Below, in pieces: positions 68 through 34,901 of a stretch of DNA of 34,901 bases. The translations under genes were made by a program, and so were the position numbers. The stretch's first letter is position 1. Every line of letters starts with the position of its first letter. Where the stretch lies: NCBI GenBank assembly GCA_014728185.1, contig WJMB01000027.1, forward strand, positions 1 to 34,901. The letters are read 5' to 3'. Below the pieces are notes generated by a model. That model made no database searches, was not told the origin of the DNA, and was given only the letters and a program-made list of their open reading frames with translations. This DNA is from Candidatus Coatesbacteria bacterium (lineage in GTDB: Bacteria > RBG-13-66-14).

Positions 68-589
68 TTGACGCTCAAAGGAACCGTCATCGCCGACTAC
101 CGTCACGAGACCTACTGCGGCCTCTACTGCGGGGCCTGCCCGATCCTGGCCGCCAACGAGGCCGGGAACGAGAAGCAGCTCGCGGCCTGGGCCGCGGAGT
201 GGAAGAGGTCTATCGAGGACCTGCGCTGCCGGGGCTGCTACACTGACCTTACCGCCGTCTTCTGCCGGAACTGCGAGATCCGCGATTGCGCCCGGGCCCG
301 GGGGCTGACCCACTGCGGCCTCTGCCCCGAGTTTCCCTGCCGCCTGCTCGAGTCCTTCCGCGACGACGACGCGGCGCACCACTGCGTGGTGGTCGCCGCG
401 AGTCGCCGTCGCGCCCAGCTCGGCGACGCCGCCTGGCTCCAGCGGCAACGGGCGCGCTGGAGCTGCCCCGACTGCGGCCGCGACTTCACCTGGTACCAGA
501 AGCGCTGCCCCGAGTGCAACAGCGAACTCTACGACTGCCGGGCCGAGGAAGCCGACCTCACCGGCGAAACCGAGGGACCCACCCCATGA
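68..589 (+). CDS. Cys-rich DUF3795-like protein (173 aa)
   Basis: ORF-track ORF with a TTG start. It has YCGLYCGAC near the N-terminus plus further CxxC pairs (CRGC, CRNC, CGLC, CPDC, CPEC), as in DUF3795-type metal-binding proteins. Its stop overlaps the next start (ATGA at 586-589). The start codon is uncertain. Confidence 0.6.
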   Translation: MTLKGTVIADYRHETYCGLYCGACPILAANEAGNEKQLAAWAAEWKRSIEDLRCRGCYTDLTAVFCRNCEIRDCARARGLTHCGLCPEFPCRLLESFRDDDAAHHCVVVAASRRRAQLGDAAWLQRQRARWSCPDCGRDFTWYQKRCPECNSELYDCRAEEADLTGETEGPTP

Positions 590-1404
590 CCGACACCGCG
601 ACCCACCCCCTCTACCAGGTCGATTCCTTCACGAAAAAGCCCTTCGCCGGCAACCCGGCGGCGGTCTGCCTGACCGAAGGTCCCGCCGACGAGGTGTGGA
701 TGCAGCGCGTCGCCGCCGAGATGAACCTCTCCGAGACCGCCTTCCTCCACCCCGGCGATGACGGCTGGAACCTGCGCTGGTTCACCCCGGCCCTCGAGGT
801 CGACCTCTGTGGCCACGCCACCCTGGCCGCCGCCCACGTCCTCTGGAACGAGCGCGGATCGACCAACGAGCCGCTGCGCTTCTCCACCCGCAGCGGCGGG
901 CTGACCGCCCGGCGCCTCGATCATCCCCACGGCTCCATCGAGCTCGATTTCCCCATCCGAGCCCAAGAGGAGGTCGACGACCACTGGACCGCCGAGCGAC
1001 TGGCCCTGGCTCTGGGCGAGAGCCCGGTCTACCTGGGTCGCAGCATGGAGGACTACCTGGCCGTTTTTGACGACCCCGAGAAGGTCCTGGGTCTGCGCCC
1101 GGACATCAAGCAGATGCGCGCCTTCACCATTCGCGGCGTCATCGTCACCGCCCCGTCCCGGGGCGAGGAGTGGGACTTCGTCTCGCGCTTCTTCGCCCCC
1201 GGCGCCGGGATCGACGAGGACCCGGTCACCGGCTCGGCTCACTGCTGCCTGGGCCCCTACTGGGCCGCCCGCTTCGACCGCGATGAACTCGTCGGCTACC
1301 AGGCCTCCAAACGCGGAGGCCGGGTCGGCGTCAAGGTCTGCGGCGAGCGGGTGCTGCTGCGCGGCGACGCCGTAACCATCATCCGCGGCGAGCTGACGGG
1401 ATAG
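586..1404 (+). CDS. PhzF-family isomerase/epimerase (272 aa)
   Basis: In-frame ATG at 586 inside ORF 286..1404. The product MTDTATHPLYQVDSFTKKPFAGNPAAV...LSETAF...CGHATLAAAHVLW...DPVTGSAHCCLGPYW matches PhzF/YddE-type proteins. The first 100 codons of the long ORF are R/P-rich and overlap the previous gene, so they were discarded. Confidence 0.85.
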   Translation: MTDTATHPLYQVDSFTKKPFAGNPAAVCLTEGPADEVWMQRVAAEMNLSETAFLHPGDDGWNLRWFTPALEVDLCGHATLAAAHVLWNERGSTNEPLRFSTRSGGLTARRLDHPHGSIELDFPIRAQEEVDDHWTAERLALALGESPVYLGRSMEDYLAVFDDPEKVLGLRPDIKQMRAFTIRGVIVTAPSRGEEWDFVSRFFAPGAGIDEDPVTGSAHCCLGPYWAARFDRDELVGYQASKRGGRVGVKVCGERVLLRGDAVTIIRGELTG

Positions 1405-1526: not shown

Positions 1527-1541
1527 TGGCACGTTTATTGC
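1527..1541 (+). promoter_or_regulatory. sigma-54 (-24/-12)-like site, TGGCACG-TTTA-TTGC
   Basis: Exact match to the RpoN core consensus TGGCACG-N4-TTGC, followed by A. It lies in the left inner arm of the palindrome, about 215 nt upstream of the purM ATG. Function is untested. Confidence 0.35.
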
Positions 1542-1584: not shown

Positions 1585-1599
1585 GCAATAAACGTGCCA
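1585..1599 (-). promoter_or_regulatory. sigma-54 (-24/-12)-like site on the minus strand, facing the site at 1527-1541
   Basis: The reverse complement of 1585-1599 reads TGGCACG-TTTA-TTGC. It points leftwards toward the PhzF-family gene 3' end. Confidence 0.3.
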
Positions 1600-1755
1600 A
1601 AGCCTCGTCGCCGGTGTTCAGGATGCTTCACCAGCTCCAGAGCGGTTTGGCAAAGGTTTCAGAGTGCGATCGCCATGACTTGTTTTATGTATTACAATGG
1701 ATTGACTCTTCAGACTCTTAGACAAACGTGCTCTTAGCCAAACGTGGAGCAAACG

Positions 1756-2790
1756 ATGATCCCCGACCCCTACAAATCCGCCGGTGTCGACGTCCGGGCC
1801 GGTGAGGCTTTCGTCAAGAACATCGCCCCCCTGGCCGAGGCCACCAGCATCCCTGGTGTGGCCGCCGGTCTGGGCGGCTTCGCGGCGGCCTTCGACACCA
1901 AGGCGGCGGGCCTCAAGGACCCCGTCCTGGTCTCGGCCACCGACGGCGTGGGCACCAAGCTTCTGGTGGCTATCCGGGCCGGTGTCCACACCACTGTGGG
2001 CATCGACCTGGTGGCGATGAGCGTCAACGACGTGCTGACGGTGGGCGCCCGGCCGCTGTTCTTCCTGGACTACTTCGCCACGGGGAAGCTGAAGCCGGAG
2101 CGGGATCGAGAGGTCTTGCAGGGAATCAGCCAGGGCTGCCTGCAGGCGGGCTGCGCGCTGATCGGCGGCGAGACCGCCGAGATGCCGGGGGTGTACAGGG
2201 AGGGCGATTACGACCTGGCGGGATTCGTCGTCGGGGCCTTGGAGCGCGGCACGGAGCTGGGTCCGCGGCGGGTGCGGGAGGGGATGGCCCTGGTGGGCCT
2301 GGCCTCGAACGGCCTGCACTCGAACGGCTTCTCGTTGGTGAGGAAACTGGTCTTCGAGGAAGCGGGCTTGGGGCCCGGCGACGTGGTCGAGTTCCTCGGG
2401 CGCAGCGTGGCAGACGAGCTGCTGGCGCCGACGCGGATCTACAGTAAGCTGCTGCCGCTGTTCCGCAAGCACCAGACGGCGGCTATGGCGCATATCACCG
2501 GCGGCGGCCTGGCGGACAACCTGTCCCGGGTTGTTCCGGAGGGAATGCGCGCCGTCCTGCACCGCGACGCTTGGCCCCGCCCCCGGGTCTTCAACTGGCT
2601 CAAGGAGTTGGGCGGTTTGAGCGACGACGAACTCGAGGCGGTCTTCAACTGCGGTTTGGGCTTGATCGCCGTGGTCCCGGAGAAGAAGGCTGCGTGGCTG
2701 ATCGAGGATCTCTCGGCGGCGGGCGAGTTCGCCTACCGGGTGGGCGAGGTTTCGGCGTCGCAGGAGCCGCCCCGCGCCGTGGTGGTCTAG
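1756..2790 (+). CDS. purM: Phosphoribosylformylglycinamidine cyclo-ligase (AIR synthetase)
   Basis: The product MIPDPYKSAGVDVRAGE...GGFAAAF...LVSATDGVGTKL...DLVAMSVNDVL...GGETAEMPG...HSNGFSLVRK is the PurM family signature. ATG 1756 is preferred over the track's GTG 1744 because GGAG (1746-1749) sits 6 nt upstream. Confidence 0.92.
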   Translation: MIPDPYKSAGVDVRAGEAFVKNIAPLAEATSIPGVAAGLGGFAAAFDTKAAGLKDPVLVSATDGVGTKLLVAIRAGVHTTVGIDLVAMSVNDVLTVGARPLFFLDYFATGKLKPERDREVLQGISQGCLQAGCALIGGETAEMPGVYREGDYDLAGFVVGALERGTELGPRRVREGMALVGLASNGLHSNGFSLVRKLVFEEAGLGPGDVVEFLGRSVADELLAPTRIYSKLLPLFRKHQTAAMAHITGGGLADNLSRVVPEGMRAVLHRDAWPRPRVFNWLKELGGLSDDELEAVFNCGLGLIAVVPEKKAAWLIEDLSAAGEFAYRVGEVSASQEPPRAVVV

Positions 2791-2843: not shown

Positions 2844-2866
2844 GCATATGCCGTCGGGAGTCCCGT

Positions 2867-4117
2867 TTACATCAGGGCCGGGTCCAGGCGGAACACCCGC
2901 CCGCCTTCGGCGGAGAGGAACAGCTTTCCGTCGGCGGCGAGGAGCTCGCCCAGGGGGAAGTCGGCGTCCAGGCGCCAGAGCAGCTCGCCCTCGGCGGCGT
3001 CCAGCGCGTAGACGCTGAAGACCAGGTTGGTCAGCTCGATATCCTGGCCTGCGTCGCGGTACTGCTCGAGCAGCGGATCGACATATCCCCAATCGCCCGA
3101 GTGCTCGGTGGTGACCACGACGTAGACGGCGCCGTCCAGGTAGACCGGCGCGCCGATCTGCCCGGGGAAGGCCATGGCCCACCTGATGGAATCGTCCTCG
3201 ACGGCCAGGCAGGTTAGTTGGCTCTGGCCGGTATCGGGTCGCTCGCCGGCGGCGTAGAGGTGTCCTGAGGCGTAGAGGAGCTTCCCGCTGCGTGTGGGCA
3301 GCTTGAGCAGCTTCTGGGAGGCTCCCTCGTCGGGGTCCAGGCGCTCGAGGTGGTCGCCGATCAGCAGGTAGAGGCTCTCGCCGTCGTAGGCGTGGTCGAT
3401 GAGTCCGTTGCCGGGCAGGCGGTGGCCCCAGAGGGAACCCAGGCTCTCCGGATTCAGGCGGCGCAGCTCCCGGGTGCGCATATAGAGGGCGTCGCCGACG
3501 CTCATCAGGTAGAAGGGCTCGCTGGGGTTGAGCTGGACGGCCAACTGGTCGACCTGTTCACCCGTCGCCTTGTCGATGGTCAGCAGGCGCTGGTCGGCCT
3601 CGGTACCGGCCACGTCCATGGCCATGTCCACGCCCAGGTAGAGTTTTCCGCCCAGGCTGACCATGTTGTAGCGATATTGGTAGGAGGGGGCGTAGTTCCA
3701 GCGCTTGTCGCCGGTCTCTAGGTCGCGGCAGATCAGGTTGCCCGGGCCGTCGCCGGGGTAGCGGTGCAGGTAGACCGCCTCCTCGTCGAAGACGGGGGCG
3801 CCGAACTCCGGTGACTCCCAGACCAGGTCGCCCGTTTCGCCGTCCAGACAGAACAGGCCCACGCCGGTGAGCGCGCAGTACAGCCGTCCGGAGGTGTAGT
3901 GCTCGAGGCCCGGCGTGGCGCCCTCGACGGCGTACTGCCAGACCAGGCTAGGATTGTCCAGCAGGGGCCGGGGCTCGAAGTCCTCGCCCTCGCCGATCAC
4001 CCGGGCTTCGCCCACCTGGGGAGGGGCATCCTCCGCGGCGGATTCATCACCGGCTTCGTCGCAGCCGGTGAAGAGGAGCGGCAGCGCCGCAAGGATAATA
4101 ATAAGGGTATGCTTCAT
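2867..4117 (-). CDS. PQQ-like beta-propeller repeat lipoprotein (BamB-like fold), 416 aa
   Basis: MKHTLIIILAALPLLFTGC is a signal peptide with a lipobox. Repeated motifs of the type LDxxTGxxxW occur (LDGETGDLVWE, RDLETGDKRWN, IDKATGEQV, LDAAEGELLWR). ATG 4117 was chosen because GGGAGG lies 5 nt upstream; the track ORF starts 7 codons earlier. Confidence 0.8.
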   Translation of the reverse strand: MKHTLIIILAALPLLFTGCDEAGDESAAEDAPPQVGEARVIGEGEDFEPRPLLDNPSLVWQYAVEGATPGLEHYTSGRLYCALTGVGLFCLDGETGDLVWESPEFGAPVFDEEAVYLHRYPGDGPGNLICRDLETGDKRWNYAPSYQYRYNMVSLGGKLYLGVDMAMDVAGTEADQRLLTIDKATGEQVDQLAVQLNPSEPFYLMSVGDALYMRTRELRRLNPESLGSLWGHRLPGNGLIDHAYDGESLYLLIGDHLERLDPDEGASQKLLKLPTRSGKLLYASGHLYAAGERPDTGQSQLTCLAVEDDSIRWAMAFPGQIGAPVYLDGAVYVVVTTEHSGDWGYVDPLLEQYRDAGQDIELTNLVFSVYALDAAEGELLWRLDADFPLGELLAADGKLFLSAEGGRVFRLDPALM

Positions 4118-4460
4118 GGCGACCTCCCGGGTCGGCATTGCGGTCTTGAACGGCCTGATAGGGGACGAAGGACTACTTGTGGGACAACCCGTCGAGGTTT
4201 TTCAAAGGGTCCGCGGTATTGCGAAACCTGCACGGGTTCCACCGCGGGCAGTCCCGTCGATCTGCAGACACTCTTGCCTTTGCGTGCCCCCTGCTCTTTC
4301 CCGGTTAACAATCTCGCGCCGGGTGGGTCGGCAAACCCCAGTCGGTCTGGATCTTCTTCATTATGATAGTCTATCGGGAGCTTTCAGGCAAGCCTGGTGA
4401 GTTTGTGCTATCATTAACGTGAAGCAATTGCATCGTTAACGACCCCAACGGGAGGTCCCG

Positions 4461-4958
4461 ATGAGTGAACTGACCGTCAAGGAGGCTCTGGAGATCGCCA
4501 TCAAGAGCGAGACCCGGGCCAAAGAGCTCTACGAGAAGATATACGAGAACGTCACCAATCTGATGATGCGCGACAAGCTCAAGTTTCTGGCCTCCGAGGA
4601 GCAGCGCCACCATGACCTGCTCACCGGCGTCTACACCGAACAGATCGGCGGCGAGCCCACCGAGCCCGACCCCAATCTGCTGCCCAAGATGCAGATCGAT
4701 GTCGACTTCGACCGAGCCGAGCTGACCGACCTCTGGCAGGCGGCCATGCAGGCCGAGGAGGTCTCCGCCGAGCACTACGAGATGCTCACCGGCCGGGTCT
4801 CCGGCCGCGCCCGGGTGATGTTCAACTACCTGGCCAACGTCGAACGCAGCCACTATTATCTGCTCAAGAGCGAGTACGACGTGCTGGCCGAGATCGACGA
4901 GTACACCCGCACCGACGACGACCCCTTCGGGCTGAACATGATCAACCTCGGTCCGTAG
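4461..4958 (+). CDS. Ferritin-like / rubrerythrin-family diiron protein (165 aa)
   Basis: A four-helix-bundle-type sequence with paired E...ExxH motifs (ETRAKE...SEEQRHH and QAEE...NVERSHY). GGGAGG lies 6 nt before the ATG. Confidence 0.75.
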   Translation: MSELTVKEALEIAIKSETRAKELYEKIYENVTNLMMRDKLKFLASEEQRHHDLLTGVYTEQIGGEPTEPDPNLLPKMQIDVDFDRAELTDLWQAAMQAEEVSAEHYEMLTGRVSGRARVMFNYLANVERSHYYLLKSEYDVLAEIDEYTRTDDDPFGLNMINLGP

Positions 4959-4986
4959 CCTTCGTGATCCAGCCGATTGGTCAATG

Positions 4987-5016
4987 AAACGGGACCGGCT
5001 CCGCCGGTCCCGTTTT
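4987..5016 (+). terminator. Rho-independent terminator
   Basis: AAACGGGACCGGC-TCC-GCCGGTCCCGTTT is a perfect 13-bp stem followed by T, 29 nt after the stop of the ferritin-like gene. Confidence 0.7.
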
Positions 5017-5112
5017 CATCTCTTTCACGACCGAACCCGATGGCGCGCCGAGCGACCTTCGCCAAACAGGTCCCCGGCGGACGAAGCCCGTCGGTCCGCC
5101 GAGGCCCGGCTT

Positions 5113-5127
5113 TGGCACGTTTCTTGC
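5113..5127 (+). promoter_or_regulatory. sigma-54 (-24/-12)-like site, TGGCACG-TTTC-TTGC
   Basis: Exact RpoN core consensus in the left inner arm of copy 2. It points into the 3' end of a minus-strand gene, so an mRNA promoter role is doubtful. Confidence 0.3.
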
Positions 5128-5168
5128 GCAGGCGGACGTGGCCTGCCGGATAGGCGGCGGGCGACTCC

Positions 5169-5183
5169 GCAAGAAACGTGCCA
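5169..5183 (-). promoter_or_regulatory. sigma-54 (-24/-12)-like site on the minus strand, facing the site at 5113-5127
   Basis: The reverse complement reads TGGCACG-TTTC-TTGC. It points into the terminator and 3' end of the ferritin-like gene. Confidence 0.3.
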
Positions 5184-5388
5184 AAGCCGCCGCGGGAGGA
5201 GTGGTTTTCGAGTGAACCGTTTGGCGAAGGTCGCGGGCACCGGTGGGATGGCGGTTAATGTATGACGCAGGGGATGCAACAGCTCCAGATATTGCGCGTC
5301 CCAAAGGGTTTGTTCATTGCATGTGCAATCGTACTCACCCCGGGCGGCTCGGCGGTGCCGGGCAGCTTCCCGCGCCTTGAGGTGTCGT

Positions 5389-6045
5389 TCAATCGATGAT
5401 CGAATCCGGCCCCGGAACTTCCAGGTCCCGTTCGCCCTTGGGGGCCAGGCGGCTGAGCTCCGCGAGGGCCTCGAGGCCCCGGGGCGGGCGGCCGTTTGTG
5501 CGTTCGAGGCGGGCCAGCTCCCGGCGTATCCAGCGTCGGATGCTCTGACCGAGGACCCACATATAGAGGTAGCGTCCCGTGGTGAACTGGCGGGCGACGG
5601 AGGCGGCCCGGCGGCGGGCCAGTTTGGGATCGCGCTCCCGGTAGGCGCGCAGGGTCTCGCGATAGCCCCGCCATTCGAAGAGCGCCCGCAGTGTCAGGCC
5701 CAGGGGCAGGGGCAACAGCAGGTAGCAGATCAGGAAGGGGGCGAGGCCCAGGCGGCGCTGGTCCAGCAGATGCACGGCCTCGTGGCGCAGCACCAGGTAG
5801 CCTGCCCGGGTGTCGAGCAATCTGCGGGCCAGGTAGACGGTGCCGTTCCAGGTGAAGGCGTCGAAGCCGGTCAGCCGGACGCCGAGGGGCCGGCCCAGGG
5901 CGTCGAGGAGCCGCACCCAGCGGCTGTCTTCGAGGACGGCCAAACGGAAGGGGATGATCCGGCCCAGGGCGCGCGTCAGGGCGCGGAAGGGGGCGTAGGG
6001 ACGTCGCCGGGCGGGGTTGCTGTCAACGATTTTCTGCTTCGCCAT
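5389..6045 (-). CDS. Hypothetical membrane protein with an HExxH motif (218 aa)
   Basis: ATG start. LRHEAVHLLDQ is an HExxH motif, followed by a hydrophobic segment (LGLAPFLICYLLLPLPLGLTL). The composition is protein-like, unlike the surrounding shadow ORFs. No family was recognised with certainty. Confidence 0.6.
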   Translation of the reverse strand: MAKQKIVDSNPARRRPYAPFRALTRALGRIIPFRLAVLEDSRWVRLLDALGRPLGVRLTGFDAFTWNGTVYLARRLLDTRAGYLVLRHEAVHLLDQRRLGLAPFLICYLLLPLPLGLTLRALFEWRGYRETLRAYRERDPKLARRRAASVARQFTTGRYLYMWVLGQSIRRWIRRELARLERTNGRPPRGLEALAELSRLAPKGERDLEVPGPDSIID

Positions 6046-6341
6046 GGGTCCGGTGGATGGGCTGGGACACGCTCAACCTTGTGCCGGGTGGATGATCAAG
6101 GCACCGGATCGAGATAACCTGTCGGGGAATTGCATTCGATTGGGTTCGCCACCGCGGTTACATATTGAAGGATAGCTCGGGGGGGAGCGGTCCGAGGGTA
6201 AAGCTTCCGGCGGCCTCGGCTTCATTGGACCAACAGACGACCGTTTTGCCGGTAGTATCCCTCAGCGCGCCCGAGTTGTCGAGTGGTGCGACAAACCCGC
6301 CGCCGGCCCGAAATCAGCGGAAAAAGCCCCGCCAAATAGCT

Positions 6342-6369
6342 TGACACATCGCCGGGGACTATTATACCC
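6342..6369 (+). promoter_or_regulatory. sigma-70-type promoter candidate for the str operon
   Basis: TTGACA (6342-6347), 16-nt spacer, TATACC (6364-6369), about 130 nt upstream of rpsL. Confidence 0.4.
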
Positions 6370-6501
6370 TTACCGCCCTTACAACGCTCAGACACCGCTA
6401 AACGCCCGGCCTCAAAGGCTACAGGCCGACCGGGCGATCCGCTGCCGAGGCTCCCCGCCCGGTGTGGGGACGCTCCGAAACCAGCAATCGAGGTTCACGC
6501 G

Positions 6502-6873
6502 ATGCCGACCGTCAATCAGTTAGTCCGCAAGGGGCGCAAGCTCTCCAGGAAGAAGACCAAGTCGCCGGCGCTGCAGGGCTGTCCCCAGCGCAAGGGGGTC
6601 TGCACCCGCGTGTGGACCGTGACCCCCAAGAAGCCGAACTCGGCCCTGCGCAAGGTGGCCCGCGTCCGTCTCACCAACGGCATCGAGGTCACCAGCTACA
6701 TCCCCGGCGAGGGGCACAACCTGCAGGAGCACAGCATCGTGCTGGTCCGCGGCGGTCGCGTCAAGGACCTGCCCGGCGTACGCTACCACATCGTCCGCGG
6801 CACCATGGACGCCATCGGCGTCAGCGGCCGCAAGCAGCAGCGCTCCAAGTACGGCACGCGCAGGGAGGGTTAA
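6502..6873 (+). CDS. rpsL: 30S ribosomal protein S12
   Basis: [12 protein letters not shown]...[19 protein letters not shown]...[10 protein letters not shown] is unmistakably S12. Confidence 0.97.
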
Positions 6874-6876
6874 GCG

Positions 6877-7347
6877 ATGTCCCGCAGGCAGAAAGTCACC
6901 CGTCGCAAGCTCGATCCCGATCCCGTGCACGGCTCCGAGCTGGTCACCCGCTTCATCAACAACCTGATGCTCGACGGCAAGCGCTCCACGGCGGAAAATA
7001 TCTTCTACGGTGCCCTGGAGCTCGTCGAGAAGAAGACGGGCAAGGAAGGCGTCAAGGTCTTCTACGACGCCCTCAAGAACGTCAAGCCGACCCTCGAGGT
7101 CAAGAGCCGCCGCATCGGCGGGGCCACCTACCAGGTGCCCCTGGAGGTCTCGCCCGAGCGCAAGACCACCCTGGCCATCCGCTGGATGATCAGCTTCTCT
7201 CGCAAGCGCAAAGAGCACGGCATGATCAACAAGCTGGCCATGGAGTTCATCGACGCCCACAACGGCGTCGGCGCCAGCGTCAAGAAACGCGAGGACACGC
7301 ACCGCATGGCCGAGGCAAACAAGGCCTTCGCCCACTTCCGCGTGTAA
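6877..7347 (+). CDS. rpsG: 30S ribosomal protein S7
   Basis: [16 protein letters not shown]...[13 protein letters not shown]...AHFR is S7. It starts 3 nt after rpsL. Confidence 0.97.
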
Positions 7348-8121
7348 CCCTCGGCAACACCGTAACACCGAACGACGACACCCCGATCCCGTCCCCCCTC
7401 CAACCGCGGGGACACCACCCGGGGAAGAGCGCGGTCCCGCCTGCGCGGCGGGAAACCCCGCTCCCCCATCTCCCAGAGCCGGGTGGGCTGGTCTGGGGGC
7501 CGTGGGAAAACGGGCGCGATTCGAGCCCCGTCCCTTCCCGATTGGCCTGGTACCGGCCGTAATCAAGCCCCGCTAAGGCCGTCGTGCCGCCGCCCCGGCG
7601 GATAACCACGGCCGACAAGGGGTCCCGGAAGCAGGTGGACTGGTACCGAAGGGTGCGCCTACAGAGGGCTTGAACAGTCCCGGGCGCGACACCCCGTCGG
7701 TTCGACAAATCCAGACCGCCGCCTGCCCGCCCAGGCGGGCTGGTATAGCCCGGCCCGTTCCACGCTTCGTCGAGACCACCGCGAGACCAACGCGTGTTGA
7801 GCCCCCTTAAGGTAAGGGGGAAGGTCCACGACGCTGGAACACCCTCCGCGCCCTTCCCTGACTTTCCTTGGGTAAGTGCGGATGAGCGAGTGCGGAGCCG
7901 CCGACCGGCGAAGCATCGAGCCGGCGCTATGCCGACCAGCCTCGGCCTCGATCCGCCCCGCGAGGGCGATCCAAACTCCAGTCCGTATCCGAGCGACACC
8001 GGCGTTTCGCGCAACGTCCGCGCAACGGCGTATTGCTCCGGCTATGCCCGCCTCCGGCGAAGAAGCTCCGGCGACGGTCCGCCGCGGTTCCAACACGGCC
8101 GAAAGCGGTTTGAGGTCCAGC

Positions 8122-10191
8122 GTGTCCGAGAATCCAGCCAAACAGACCGCCGCCATCGCCAGGGTGCGCAACGTGGGCATCACCGCCCACATCGACGCTG
8201 GCAAGACCACGCTGACCGAGCGAATCCTTTACTACACGGGCAAGACACACAAGATCGGCGAGGTTCACGACGGGGCCGCCGAGATGGACTGGATGGAGCA
8301 GGAGAAGGAACGCGGCATCACCATCACCTCTGCCGCCACCACCTGCTTCTGGCGTGACCACCGCATCAACATCATCGACACCCCGGGTCACGTCGACTTC
8401 ACCGTCGAGGTGGAGCGCTCTTTGAGAGTTCTGGACGGCGCGGTGGGCGTCTTCTGCGCCGTGGCCGGGGTCCAGCCCCAGTCCGAGACCGTCTGGCGCC
8501 AGGCCGCCCGCTACGGCGTGCCCCGCCTGGCCGTGGTCAACAAGATGGACCGCGTCGGCGCCTCCTACGACCGCGTCCTGGACGACCTGGTCGCCAAGCT
8601 CGACGCCTCGCCGGCGCCGCTGACCATCCCCCTGGGCGCCGAGGAGACCTTTCGCGGGATCATCGACCTGGTCACCCTGGAGCGCGTCGAGTTCGGCGGC
8701 GATTTGGGCCTCGAGGTCCGGCGCTCGCCCCTGGACGACGAAGAGGCCGCCCTGGCCGCGCCCTACCGGGAACGCCTGGTCGAGGTCGCCTGCGACTTCG
8801 ACGACGCCCTGATGGAGGACTACCTCCACGGCCGGGACCCGGAGCCCGCGCGTCTCGTCTCCGCGCTGCGCACCGGCACTCTGGCCTGCGGGCTGCACCC
8901 GGTGCTGGCCGCCAGCGCCCTGCGCAACAAGGGCGTCCAGCCCGTCCTCGACTACGTCGTCGAGCTGCTGCCCAGTCCCCTGGACCGCGGCGCCGTCACC
9001 GGGCTCAACCCCGACTCCGGCGAGCGCGAGACCCGGGAGCCCGATCCCGATCAGCCGGCCACGGCCTATGTCTTCAAGACGGCCACCGACCCCTTCGTCG
9101 GCAAGCTGACCTTCTTCCGGACCTACGCCGGCACCCTGGGCGTCAAAGACAAGCTGCTCAACAGCCACACCGGACGCCAGGTGCGCATCAACCGGCTGCT
9201 CGAGATGCACGCCAACAAGAAGCACGACGTCAAGAGCCTGGGACCCGGGGAGATCGGCGCCGCCGTGGGTCTCAAGGGCTGCCGAACCAACGACACCCTC
9301 TGCGACCCCGCCGCTCCGTTGATCCTGGGCGAGATCGACTTCCCCGAGCCCGTGGTCCGCGTGGCCATCGAGCCCCGCTCCACCGAGGACGAGAAGAAGC
9401 TCGAGGGGGCCCTCGAGGAGCTGGCCGCCGACGATCCGACCTTCACCGCCCACGAGGACGCCGAGACGGGCCAGCGGATCATCTCCGGGATGGGCGAGCT
9501 GCACCTGGAGATCATCGTCGACCGGCTCAAGCGCGAATTCAAGGTCGGCTGCCGCGTCGGCGAGCCCCAGATCGCCTACAAGGAATCCGTCGCCTCCGCC
9601 GCCGTCGGCTCCTTCACCCTCGACCAGCTCCTCGGCGGCAAGCGCCAGTACGCCCGGGTCGAGGTGCGCGTCTCCCCGGCCGAGCCCGGCGAGGGCTTCT
9701 CCTTCTCCGGAACCGTCGACGGCCTGCCCCGCCTCTACCGCGAGGCCGCCGCCGCCGGCTGCCGCCAGGGGATGTACTCCGGCCCCACCGCCGGTTACCC
9801 GATGATCGACGTCCGCGCCGAACTCACCGGGGCCGACTTCGATGACGAGGCCTCCAGCGAAGAGGTCTTCCAGGCCGCCGCCTTCCGGGCCTTCCACGCG
9901 GCCTGCCAGAAGGCCGACCCCCGGGTTTTCGAACCGTTGATGCTCCTGGAGATAACCTGTCCCGAGGACTTCGTCGGCAACGTGATGAAAGACCTCGTCA
10001 CCCGCAAGGGCCAGATCCTGGAAACCCGGGTCCAGGCCGGCGCCCAGGTCGTCGACGCCCTGGTGCCACTCTCGCGGATGTTCGGCTACGCCACCACCTT
10101 GCGCTCGCTGACCCAGGGCCGCGCCGCCCACCATATGCAGTTCGAGCGCTACGAGCCCGTCCCCGAGGACGCCGAGGGCCGCTGGTGGTAG
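8122..10191 (+). CDS. fusA: Elongation factor G (689 aa with this start)
   Basis: [25 protein letters not shown]...[11 protein letters not shown]...NKMDR are the G-domain motifs, followed by EF-G domains II-V. GTG 8122 was chosen because GAGG (8112-8115) lies 6 nt upstream and it leaves about 14 aa before the P-loop region. The ORF is open from 7876, but that part is R/A/P/S low-complexity. Confidence 0.85.
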
Positions 10192-10307
10192 CCCGGCCGC
10201 TGGAGCGCCGGACCCGCCCGAGATTCCGTTCCGGTCCCATTCAGGGGTGAGGGCTCCACGCAGAGCGAGCGGTGCGTTGAGCGGCGTAAATGCACCCGCA
10301 GGATAGC

Positions 10308-10337
10308 TTTACTTTGCCGCGCGGACTGTGTTATATT
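10308..10337 (+). promoter_or_regulatory. sigma-70-type promoter candidate upstream of tuf
   Basis: TTTACT (10308-10313), 18-nt spacer, TATATT (10332-10337), within the 425-nt fusA-tuf spacer. Confidence 0.4.
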
Positions 10338-10616
10338 CTCCGCCCTTTGCCCAGGCGCCCGATGAACGGCGCCCCGGGCCGAATCGTCATCGGCCGTATT
10401 TCGATCCGTCGGCGGCGAAGCGAGCGGAAGAACGAAATCCCCCGGGCTGCGAGATAACGATAGGGACCTGGATCGGAAACGACGGGAACCACAGGCAGGA
10501 GCCGGGGTTTGAGTGAGATGCACTTGAAGACACGTAAAACAGGAAAAGGACAAGAGAGCGAGAAGTCCTAGCGCCCGTTACCACCAGGCTAACCGCCATT
10601 ACCAGGAGATTTGAAG

Positions 10617-11819
<1,203 letters not shown>

Positions 11820-13876: not shown

Positions 13877-14740
13877 ATGCCAGTCAAGAAGATGAAGCCG
13901 ACCTCGTCGGGTACCCGCCACGCCAGCCGCCTGGTGGTGGAGGAGCTCTCCAAGGAGCGCTCCCCCAAGGCGCTGCGCAAGGCCAAGAAGCGCACCAACG
14001 GCCGCAACAACACCGGCCGGATCACGATGCGCCGACGCGGCGGCGGACACAAGCGCCAACTGCGCACCGTCGACTTCAAGCGCAACAAGGACGGTGTCCC
14101 CGGCGTCGTCGCCGCCATCGACTACGATCCCAACCGCTCGGCCAACCTGGCCCGCGTCAAATATCTGGACGGCGAGTGGCGCTACATTCTGCACCCGCGC
14201 AACGTCAAGGTCGGCGACACCGTCATCAGCGGCGAGATCGCCGAGGTCAAGCCGGGTAACGCCATGCCCCTGCGCTCGATCCCCCTGGGCCAGTTGGTCC
14301 ACTGCGTCGAGCTCAAGCCGGGCAAGGGCGGGCAGTTGGCGCGCAGCGCCGGCTCCTGGGCCCGTCTGGCCGCCAAGGAGGGCGACTGGGGCCACCTGCG
14401 TCTGCCCTCGGGCGAGGTCCGTCTGGTCAACCTGGCCTGCCGGGCCACCATCGGTCAGGTCGCCCTGTCCGAGAAGAACCAGGTCGTGCTGGGCAAGGCC
14501 GGACGCAAGCGCTGGCTAGGGCGCCGCCCCAAGGTGCGCGGTGTCTCGATGAACCCCGTCGACCACCCCCACGGCGGCGGCGAGGGCCGCACCGCCGGCG
14601 GTCGCCACCCCGTCTCGCCCTGGGGCAAGCTGACCAAGGGCAAGCGCACCCGCAAGAAGACCAACCGCTACGTGGTGCTGGGCCGCCGTCGCGGCAAGCA
14701 GGCCGGCGCCCGGGTCAAGGGCCAGGTCAAGAGCTCCTGA
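13877..14740 (+). CDS. rplB: 50S ribosomal protein L2
   Basis: [15 protein letters not shown]...[14 protein letters not shown]. It has a short basic C-terminal tail. Confidence 0.97.
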
Positions 14741-29061: not shown

Positions 29062-29152
29062 GGAGGGCTAGTCCTAACTGGTAAGGCAGCGGACTTGAAA
29101 TCCGCCGGGCTCCACAAAGCCCTTGCAGGTTCGAATCCTGTGCCCTCCGCCA
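29062..29152 (+). tRNA. tRNA-Ser (anticodon UGA)
   Basis: Hand-folded. Acceptor GGAGGGC/GCCCTCC plus G-CCA, anticodon arm GCGGA-CTTGAAA-TCCGC, long variable arm (GGGCT...AGCCC), and T-arm with GGTTCGAATCC. Confidence 0.85.
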
Positions 29153-29153
29153 A

Positions 29154-29412
29154 GGGGGCTGGTAATGGCCTCCACCAAATGCCACCCCGGCTAAACAGCA
29201 ATACAAAACTCAGGGGGCTGGTATTGGGGCTCGTGATCGAGTGCCCATTGTACCGCCCCGGCTAAGCGGCAAAGCATAACTCGGGGGCTGGTAATGGCCT
29301 CCACCAAATGCCACCCCGGCTAAACAGCAATACATAACTCGGGGGCTGGTATTCGAGGGCTGCCAAGAAAGCTCCCGGCCAGCGGCTGCCCGGGTAAATG
29401 CCGTAGTGACTC
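29154..29412 (+). repeat. Tandem array of four ~58-72-nt hairpin-forming units
   Basis: The units start at 29154, 29213, 29283 and 29341, each with GGGGGCTGGTA(A/T)T. Units 1 and 3 are identical apart from one base and a 1-nt length difference at the 3' end (59 vs 58 nt). Units 1-3 share CCCCGGCTAA...GCAA..ACA.AACTC downstream. Unit 4 is degenerate. Confidence 0.8.
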
Positions 29413-29638: not shown

Positions 29639-29731
<93 letters not shown>

Positions 29732-29744
29732 CCCGCTTCACCTG

Positions 29745-29821
<77 letters not shown>

Positions 29822-34434: not shown

Positions 34435-34709
34435 GTTGAAACAGCGGTGGAGAGAACTGTGGCGAGTATACCCATCGCATTCAGCCTTGCTGATTACGTT
34501 GGCAATTGGTCAAGTGGCAACGGGCTGATTGACGGGCCGCACTCTACGGGCCGAGCGGCCCTTGGCTGACTGCATCAGCCTCGTCTCGACGAGGCTTGCT
34601 CGGGCTCCGCGACACGGCGGCGGCCGATTGATCCGGGCAACACGCAACCAACGGCGTCTATTGGAAAGCGTTAGTGATTATCACACGTGCCTGAACGGGT
34701 ATGTGACAC

Positions 34710-34725
34710 TAATATCATGATATTA
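34710..34725. promoter_or_regulatory. Perfect 16-bp AT-rich palindrome TAATATCATGATATTA (operator or recombination-site candidate)
   Basis: It is self-complementary over 16 bp, flanked by near-symmetric CAC / GTG. It lies in the low-GC, ORF-free tail about 95 nt upstream of an ATG-initiated ORF that runs off the window. Confidence 0.3.
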
Positions 34726-34901
34726 CGTGCCATATAGCTGTGCAAGCTGCCACTGTTTTAGCGTTGCCTGGTGGCGGAAAACCAGACTTGCTCGATTATC
34801 ACGCTGAGAGTCGGGAAGCCATGACTCCTGATTCGCATCCCCGGCTTACCAGGTGGAATGAGGCTAGCTGCAGTCAAAAAGCTGCTTTAGCTGATATGAT
34901 A

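Follow-up and report, generated by a model that had tools for sequence, protein, structure and literature searches.

The closest described counterparts of the element analyzed here are the repetitive extragenic palindromes (REPs) of Enterobacteria and Pseudomonas and their composites, the bacterial interspersed mosaic elements (BIMEs). The element is a nested palindrome that occurs twice in a 34,901-nucleotide stretch of Candidatus Coatesbacteria DNA (contig WJMB01000027.1, the whole of which is termed the window), as copy 1 at positions 1477–1660 and copy 2 at 5052–5234. Like REPs and BIMEs, it is a high-copy extragenic palindrome located behind genes in tandem and convergent gaps, a mosaic of inverted units with variable linkers, devoid of target-site duplications and built on stems that remain paired while their sequence drifts. 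REPs are 20–40 bp in length and carry a conserved GTAG or CGTC head (PMC3733652). In contrast, the Coatesbacteria element measures ~185 bp, has two nested pairs of arms without a GTAG or CGTC head in their consensus, and its inner arms match the sigma-54 promoter consensus exactly. The element is a new kind of interspersed repeat and not a gene promoter. Judging from the sequence, we favor, with a probability of roughly 0.55, the view that it is a REP/BIME-like palindrome, tolerated or put to use at the 3' ends of genes and kept symmetric by flip-flop exchange, whose inner arms would dock sigma-54 RNA polymerase without serving the expression of the neighboring genes.

Three further classes of known elements bear comparison. 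Correia/NEMIS and similar miniature inverted-repeat transposable elements (MITEs; ERIC, RUP and BOX) are 100–200 bp long, bounded by inverted repeats, situated near genes with which they are co-transcribed, and able to form long hairpins; MITE termini are conserved among copies, and a target-site duplication is present (TA for Correia). The Coatesbacteria element shares the size, the inverted-repeat boundaries, the gene proximity, the long hairpins and the insertion polymorphism between related genomes, and Correia elements also carry promoter elements. Unlike in MITEs, the termini are the variable part (arms paired across elements match at 9–12 of 14 positions) and no duplication was detectable; unlike in Correia, the promoter type is sigma-54, present twice and in convergent orientation.

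Invertons and passive hairpin-loop inversions resemble the element in that a short segment between perfect inverted repeats occurs in both orientations, even at orthologous loci. In known invertons the promoter lies inside the invertible piece, which is usually >100 bp long and needs a nearby invertase, whereas here the promoter-like boxes are themselves the inverted repeats, the segment is ~41 nt and no invertase was seen nearby. Integron attC sites are likewise structured, sequence-variable inverted repeats located just behind open reading frames, and the ...AAAC / GTTT... of the outer arms recalls their RYYYAAC / GTTRRRY. However, GCCAAAC / GTTTGGC is one base off that consensus on each side, attC sites have no sigma-54-like inner palindrome, and the copies are scattered among housekeeping genes rather than gathered in cassette arrays, with no adjoining integrase.

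Characterized sigma-54 regulons typically comprise a few dozen promoters; in contrast, the present family implies at least 150 consensus sites per genome. Sigma-54 promoters and non-promoter sites (PMC4591121, PMC3844500) parallel the inner arms in the TGGCACG-N4-TTGC box with its T-rich spacer (an activator gene is also present in the host), and they provide a precedent for many sites that bind the holoenzyme without driving a gene. The sigma-54 holoenzyme is known to occupy DNA without transcribing it, and many of the sites concerned are not promoters (PMC4591121). The sites of the element differ from these in belonging to a repeat family, in lying always head-on, 37–45 nt apart, behind stop codons, and in having no conserved activator site. 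The literature searched held no account of palindromic repeats built from sigma-54 boxes, or of repeats in Coatesbacteria.

The two copies in the window are organized as follows.

5052–5067: outer left arm of copy 2 (GCGACCTTCGCCAAAC), the element terminus, in inverted repeat with 5219–5234
5068–5106: long spacer of copy 2, 39 nt, with its own local hairpin at ~5074–5101 (CGGCGGAC...GTCCGCCG)
5107–5128, plus strand: inner left arm of copy 2; 5113–5127 is TGGCACGTTTCTTGC, the sigma-54 -24/-12 consensus pointing right
5128–5168: core of copy 2, 41 nt between TTGC and GCAA, asymmetric and invertible
5168–5189, minus strand: inner right arm of copy 2; 5169–5183 on the minus strand is TGGCACGTTTCTTGC, pointing left
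5190–5218: short spacer of copy 2, 29 nt
5219–5234: outer right arm of copy 2 (GTTTGGCGAAGGTCGC), pairing perfectly over 16 bp with 5052–5067
1477–1660: copy 1, between a PhzF-like gene (286–1404, plus strand) and a purM-like gene (1744–2790, plus strand)
1527–1541, plus strand, and 1585–1599, minus strand: sigma-54-like boxes of copy 1, with TTTA as N4

Reading of the sequence showed that the inner arms of copy 2 form a perfect 22-bp inverted repeat enclosing 39 nt, and that both read TGGCACG-TTTC-TTGC. These arms, their coordinates, the 16-bp and 22-bp perfection, the 39-nt core, the 39/29-nt spacers and the spacer hairpin had all been reported in a preliminary description made from the letters alone, and were recovered base for base. 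That description had also claimed that copy 1 follows the same plan and differs from copy 2 by paired changes, and this was upheld: the inner arms of copy 1 carry TTTA/TAAA and its outer arms are TTTGCCAAAC/GTTTGGCAAA (differing part TTTGCC/GGCAAA), both of these differences being paired. A single mismatch in the outer arm of copy 1, T1482, is a C in the strain-level relative L090 (ortholog at 5176–5360), where the arm is thus a perfect 17 bp. When copy 1 was aligned to copy 2 in both orientations, conservation was confined to the outer and inner arms. The 16-mer arm pattern occurred exactly four times (0.04 expected), and all 11 consensus positions of TGGCACG-N4-TTGC were matched in both arms of both copies. 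As DNA, the predicted fold of 5052–5234 reached -73.8 kcal/mol (z = -9.7); for RNA, the value was -122.8 kcal/mol (z = -9.0). In neither case were any of 200 shuffles as stable.

The window copies belong to a large dispersed repeat family that is specific to a clade of Candidatus Coatesbacteria. A scan of one genome per species for two consensus boxes face to face, 25–55 nt apart, returned at least 76 loci, at least 69 of them in a single metagenome-assembled genome (MAG), CAZOOP01. In this sister MAG at least 76 non-redundant copies were counted, and ~80 non-redundant elements were read in the loci examined; all copy numbers are lower bounds. The suspicion of a family beyond the two copies was thereby borne out. 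One CAZOOP01 locus, L033, is 92–96% identical to window positions 2862–10821 (a shared 8 kb) and retains copy 2, which places the window in a close relative of CAZOOP01. The best named relative of the EF-Tu protein is from a Candidatus Coatesbacteria MAG (94%). With regard to Rfam, at gathering score the window yielded only tRNAs and related palindromes yielded no match.

Similarity between paralogs usually stops at the outer arms, which defines a unit of 176–209 bp (mean, 187 bp). Across the sister MAG and the other loci, the inner arms (GGCKT-TGGCACGTTTCTTGC) are essentially invariant: they were identical in 76 of 83 arm pairs, and a change in one arm only was never observed (0 of 83). The variants were always found on both arms, i.e., TTTT in L008 and L055, TTTA in copy 1 of the window, and TGGCACA in L071, the last of which is not selected by the scan pattern. 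The core measures 37–45 nt (mode, 43), is asymmetric (AGCAGGGCGGGG...(A/T)YTCC) and occurs in both orientations; its ends adjoining the stem are conserved (AGCAGGGCGGGG ... ACTCC). In two loci (L014, 1963–2066, and L018, 4594–4695), normal inner arms enclose unrelated, longer cores of 72–74 nt that start with TAT. The two spacers are unequal throughout the family (~48 nt and ~37 nt) and weakly conserved. The outer arms follow a loose family consensus, GACCTyNGCCrAAC, but are element-specific.

Despite this variability, the outer arms of any one element are matched to each other. They were complementary at 14 of 14 positions in 50 of 73 elements and at 13 of 14 in 13 more, as opposed to 9–12 of 14, usually, for arms paired across different elements. 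In an alignment of 46 elements with their arms joined by A-linkers (A2), 15 of the 18 outer-stem pairs changed on both sides, and the covariation score was 0.275, versus 0.094 +/- 0.006 for shuffles (0 of 500 reached 0.275) and 0.04–0.085 for slid controls; since A2 was registered using the pairing itself, the comparison of arms between elements is the fairer test. Both-sided changes occupied 202 cells, ~180 of them in the outer stem, and one-sided changes (the G-U route) ~7 cells. Single mismatches in the outer arms, tallied by eye, were few and of mixed strand. These values bear out the earlier proposal that selection or homogenization acts on symmetry. Some of the "compensatory" differences may nevertheless have been inherited within subfamilies and not have arisen each time as a double change of their own, a possible example being the GGCGT/GGCTT pair, with 31 G-C, 13 T-A and no intermediates.

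The core, in turn, inverts within short evolutionary times: in each of two independent genome pairs, the orthologs carry it in opposite orientations. Comparing copy 2 of the window with its L033 ortholog, 38 of 41 core positions were identical after reverse-complementation and 26 of 41 in the same orientation, with flanks that were collinear (65 of 73). Similarly, the L077 and L093 orthologs agreed at 40 of 41 positions when flipped and at 28 of 41 when not. Family-wide, the orientation of the core is ~50:50 and independent of the side on which the long spacer lies (counts of 16, 16, 13 and 9).

The manner in which the arms change bears on whether symmetry is maintained at the level of DNA or of RNA. 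RNA stems under selection normally pass through wobble pairs and tolerate them, but G-U pairs were nearly absent among the hundreds of variable stem cells. Watson–Crick-only symmetry, together with core flips between orthologs, favors DNA-level exchange from arm to arm over compensatory evolution of the RNA type. If the arms of an element exchanged sequence by recombination or template switching, the enclosed segment would flip and one arm would be copied onto the other in the same event, such that the palindrome stays perfect while the outer arms drift as a pair. Arm-to-arm exchange within the element would thus account for the core flips, the perfect Watson–Crick identity of the arms and the paired drift of the outer arms together. 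Among the three forms of symmetry that had been proposed initially, i.e., an RNA hairpin, a DNA cruciform or a dimeric protein site, our results lean toward a process at the DNA level and speak against a dimer of fixed geometry, given the core of 37–45 nt and the variable outer arms. An operator for a dimeric or tetrameric transcription factor that reads symmetric half-sites is extremely improbable. The half-sites are indeed perfectly symmetric, but they are spaced by 37–45 nt and by up to 74 nt, the outer arms differ by copy yet co-vary within a copy, which independent recognition of half-sites does not predict, and dozens of copies lie behind unrelated genes, mostly away from promoters.

The genomic position of the copies was analyzed with gene calls from a crude caller based on third-position GC, which was checked on the window and is heuristic. 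The gaps with an element comprised 50 tandem, 11 convergent and 3 divergent ones, as compared with 193, 35 and 39, respectively, for element-free gaps of the same loci; between convergent and divergent gaps, the divergent class was depleted (Fisher p = 0.04). Within tandem gaps, a median of 22.5 nt separates the upstream stop codon from the element and a median of 144 nt separates the element from the following start; the stop side was the nearer one in 31 of 42 cases (p = 0.003). In a few copies an outer arm runs into the stop codon or the final codons of the gene. No orientation bias relative to the gene was detected for either the core (14:14) or the long spacer (11:16), and none of the copies listed has a T-run past its distal arm. 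Target-site duplications did not exceed chance, the lengths of direct repeats at the boundaries matching those of a mismatched-flank control. One copy is located within the S10 ribosomal-protein operon of L096, between rplB and rpsS.

The surroundings of copy 2 conform to this pattern.

4461–4958, plus strand: rubrerythrin gene (Pfam PF02915), whose 3' end faces copy 2
4986–5016, plus strand: intrinsic-terminator-like hairpin with T-run, belonging to the rubrerythrin gene and located 35 nt upstream of copy 2
5389–6045, minus strand: unannotated gene of 218 aa (third-position GC 0.87), called by codon-position GC and converging on copy 2

The gene at 5389–6045 had no Pfam match; as it lies on the minus strand, the gap that holds copy 2 is convergent, and the original placement of this copy between convergent genes, after a terminator, is thus correct. 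The hairpin at 4986–5016 is probably context and not part of the element. A paralog at L069 (1660–1907) is 81% identical to window positions 4987–5236 over 250 bp, a stretch that also takes in an upstream hairpin resembling the terminator (GGGACC...GGTCCC followed by a T-run); the duplicated unit in the L069/copy 2 subfamily may therefore extend ~65 nt past the outer arm.

Two simple identities were considered and rejected. The element is not an intrinsic terminator, since in the copies listed no tract rich in T lies behind the distal arm and the terminator at 4986–5016 is separate. Nor is it nested in an older terminator or a simpler palindrome, in view of the same lack of a T-run and the rarity of outer-arm hairpins without the inner part (2 empty versus 30 filled). 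A mini-element in L056 (6–100) has typical outer arms (GACCTTCGCCGAAC/GTTCGGCGAAGGTC) 70 nt apart but lacks the inner palindrome with its sigma-54-like boxes, and might have arisen by deletion or represent an ancestral form.

The position behind stop codons is also what would be expected if the element acted in RNA, as a read-through transcript that folds into a 3' untranslated-region hairpin of ~-120 kcal/mol and stops transcription, acts as a barrier to 3' exonucleases or serves as a substrate for RNase III, with an incidental likeness to sigma-54 boxes. Roles of this kind have been proposed for REP, ERIC and Correia elements. The median distance of 22.5 nt past stops in tandem and convergent gaps, the very stable predicted fold, and a symmetry that gives the same hairpin from either strand, consistent with the absent orientation bias, all agree with such a role. 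We nevertheless consider it unlikely: G-U pairs are nearly absent although RNA stems normally tolerate them, the distal arm is not followed by a T-run, copy 2 is preceded by a canonical terminator and is not needed for termination there, and a terminator within the S10 operon of L096 would be harmful. In addition, structure leaves unexplained the 15–20 nt of invariant inner-stem sequence and its sigma-54 positions.

In favor of a link to sigma-54, the inner arms match all 11 consensus positions. Both versions of the spacer are rich in T where they adjoin the GC element, as is the case in strong binding sites for sigma-54, e.g., that of rhizobial nifH. In the sister MAG, a gene for a sigma-54 activator with a GAF-Sigma54_activat-HTH_8 architecture and a GAFTGA motif was identified at L064 5353–6849 (PF00158, 237.8 bits). 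The inner arms would not drift because their sequence is selected in double-stranded DNA, for which the likeliest ligand is the holoenzyme of sigma-54 RNA polymerase; tight docking of this enzyme is probably the selected property, a function that is read from sequence. The holoenzyme would occupy both arms as stable closed complexes that are unable to fire without an activator, and the element would constitute a paired docking site at gene ends, acting as a boundary, a roadblock or a reservoir rather than as the promoter of a neighbor.

The arm sequence also depends on the lineage. The arms read GGCKT-TGGCACG-TTTC-TTGC in the window and CAZOOP01, GGAAC-(T/C)GGCACG-GTTT-TTGC in L077, L093, L169 and L179, GGCGG-TGGCACA-GTTT-TTGC in L096, and GGCGG-TGGCACG-GTTT-TTGC in the left arm of L089, the right arm of which is decayed. 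The differences are confined to the flank, the N4 spacer, -26 and -20, while GGCAC and TTGC are unchanged in intact arms. The best-sampled lineages, TTTC and GTTT, show five consensus differences, none of which falls on the 11 consensus positions among 20; the combinatorial expectation for this is 126/15504 = 0.008.

The paired sites are not gene promoters, as copy 2 lies between convergent gene ends, divergent gaps are depleted, and the paired outer arm upstream of each site differs by copy. The view that a conventional mRNA promoter is unlikely at copy 2 was therefore justified, and it extends to the family (50 tandem, 11 convergent and 3 divergent gaps, a stop-side position and either orientation). 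The sites might still be working sigma-54 promoters of another sort, giving rise, once an activator fires them, to short convergent transcripts, to antisense RNAs entering the flanking 3' ends and to read-out downstream, with the core as a direction switch in which TTGC-A versus TTGC-GGAG would set the favorable -11/start region. The boxes are of exact consensus, an activator is encoded by the host, close relatives differ by flips of the core, and the asymmetry of the core gives the consensus TTGCA at one end and TTGCG at the other in all three lineage types. From the sequence, however, we judge this to be very unlikely: owing to the variable outer arms a conserved activator site is lacking upstream, the downstream side shows neither a conserved transcript or terminator nor coding potential, and the statistics of position and orientation are those of a tolerated repeat and not of a regulator. 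Moreover, short loops between long inverted repeats also invert passively, as in the hairpin inversions of chloroplasts.

Presence and absence of the element at orthologous sites were assessed by using rubrerythrin homologs to retrieve the corresponding loci, as a look-up of the exact rubrerythrin protein of the window gave no record. Behind the rubrerythrin gene, an element is present in the window, L090, L091, L033, L077/L078 (85% protein identity) and L093, and is absent from L087 (80%), L088, L081, L085 and L089, where a plain terminator or other repeats are found instead. Additional copies are lineage-specific, such as the one upstream of rpsL in L093 and the one between rplB and rpsS in L096. 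As regards the comparison with relatives that had been suggested initially, presence differs at orthologous sites, and target-site duplications are lacking. Other palindromic repeats were observed at the elementless site in L081 (~6500–6560), L085 (~6560–6620), L088 (~1700–1810) and L089 (3560–4085), examples being CTCTCCC...GGGAGAGGG(C/T)...GGGGTGAGGG and GGCGGGGAT...ATCCCCGCC; this gap at the gene end seems to be a place where repeats in general tend to settle. In L093 (297–1447) and in L094, an AT-rich insertion with a DUF6602 gene separates the rubrerythrin gene from the terminator and element, and the arms of the adjoining L093 copy are decayed and asymmetric. The independent short-read contigs of two near-identical strains, L090 (end, 8799–8814) and L091 (end, 2954–2973), both terminate in the left inner arm of copy 2, which indicates that the palindrome breaks assemblies.

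Such polymorphism raises the possibility of a selfish, non-autonomous repeat (REP-, PATE- or MITE-like) that owes its mobilization or maintenance to a structure-specific DNA enzyme. The inner hairpin and asymmetric loop would then be read by a REP-associated tyrosine transposase (RAYT), by a Y1 transposase of the IS200/IS605 type or by another recombinase, with the invariant arm sequence as its site and the match to sigma-54 being a coincidence. This explanation is doubtful, although it is the least unlikely of the alternatives. It accommodates the variable presence at the same sites among related lineages, the lack of target-site duplication (as for REPs and IS200/IS605), the conserved core ends next to the stem, the occurrence elsewhere of another hairpin family that shares the stem motif, and arms that are genome-specific (TTTC versus GTTT; GGCKT versus GGAAC versus GGCGG), as in co-evolution with a lineage-specific protein. 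Conversely, neither a transposase, a recombinase nor a RAYT was present among the genes between the few copy pairs checked (beta-lactamase-like, radical SAM and unknowns), nor was a transposase seen beside them, and among the paired parts the termini, i.e., the outer arms, show the lowest conservation. Spacers near saturation combined with identical arms fit long-term constraint better than recent copying. A 20-nt arm would match all 11 sigma-54 positions by chance at ~1e-5 per family (combinatorics), and coincidence must also contend with the value of 0.008 for five TTTC/GTTT differences that all miss the consensus.

Several points weigh against sigma-54 docking combined with arm exchange. 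The N4 spacer hardly varies inside a genome (~77 of 80 copies have TTTC) and is not the same from one lineage to the next; sigma-54 does not read N4, and its uniformity needs homogenization between copies, a recent spread, or a ligand that contacts all positions. Docking explains neither the need for the outer arms nor the conserved core ends. Not every copy is symmetric, as decayed, asymmetric arms are found in L093 (at 1571) and L089 (2373), and one arm in L096 has a one-base insertion. An rpoN gene, sought by its RpoN-box motif, was not seen in ~1 Mb of Coatesbacteria sequence, an amount that is not informative about absence. Finally, hairpins that look like sigma-54 sites arise elsewhere: in a low-GC metagenome family, TGGCACG-N4-TTGC stems open a long conserved non-coding stretch.

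This low-GC family was found in L159, L129, L167, L101, L157 and L124, and in ~30 other metagenome loci. It has a 15-bp TGGCACG-N4-TTGC stem with a co-varying N4 and a loop of 25–26 nt, is preceded by GACCCTTT, and is followed by >150 nt of conserved non-coding sequence (ACCCTACGGGTCAGGGCAGTGGTTCA...) with no match in Rfam; it looks like an insertion-sequence (IS) end or a guide-RNA-like element. In several unrelated organisms (L125, L152, L127, L166, L151, L119, L148 and L059/L204), TTGGCA(C/T)G-N4-TTGC boxes form arrays in which the orientation alternates every 40–50 nt. Pattern scans of genomes and metagenomes retrieved many head-on TGGCACG-N4-TTGC pairs in other phyla, a mixture of the low-GC family, box arrays and singletons. 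These pairs were rejected both as members of the present family and as support for sigma-54 function, since the hits are heterogeneous and the pattern itself fixes the diagnostic bases.

A more elaborate version of sigma-54 docking, which we regard as quite unlikely, would see in the family a genome-wide layer of at least 76, and probably more, paired sigma-54 sites per genome, with a short initiation region that is flipped by recombination between the boxes. Such a layer could sequester holoenzyme at gene ends or, once an activator is triggered, fire direction-switchable antisense and read-out transcripts from many loci simultaneously. Sigma-54 binds -12 fork-junction DNA most tightly, and the extruded hairpin might mimic DNA of this form.

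Other repeats were also noted in the window. A second, unrelated multi-copy non-coding family, which has a higher AT content and whose conservation extends over at least 330 nt, is represented at 34673–34901, where it is cut by the window end; it starts with ...GGGATTATCACACGTGCCTGAACAGG... and has at least 10 copies in loci of the sister MAG (L051, L039 twice, L042, L030, L034, L032, L061 and L013). No Rfam match was obtained for this GGGATTATCACACGTGCCTGAACAGG family, which might be a structured RNA or an IS-associated RNA. Three direct repeats of ~63–70 nt, the latter two 97% and 68% identical to the first, occupy 29154–29345, adjoining a tRNA gene (29062–29149) and preceding the tRNAs at 29639–29818. 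The motif TGTATTACAATGG occurs at 1494–1507, in a spacer of copy 1, and again at 1687–1700, 27 nt past copy 1 and upstream of the purM-like gene; TACAATGG precedes genes in relatives as well (L090, ~5386–5397; L096, ~14716–14726). The TGTATTACAATGG/TACAATGG motif is possibly a -10-type promoter element of the lineage.

Whatever its function, the family is a natural example of perfect palindromes probably maintained by arm-to-arm exchange, and it warns against taking "compensatory" changes in repeats of this palindromic type as a sure sign of RNA structure. It also exemplifies repeats that break metagenome assemblies, in a group, Candidatus Coatesbacteria, that is uncultured. Provided that sigma-54 polymerase binds the arms, the family would be the first among interspersed repeats to be assembled from the promoter boxes of this factor, and the consensus sigma-54 sites in one genome would far outnumber those of any known regulon. 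The element would then bear on the partitioning of sigma-54 in these bacteria and on bound, silent polymerase as a mark of gene boundaries.

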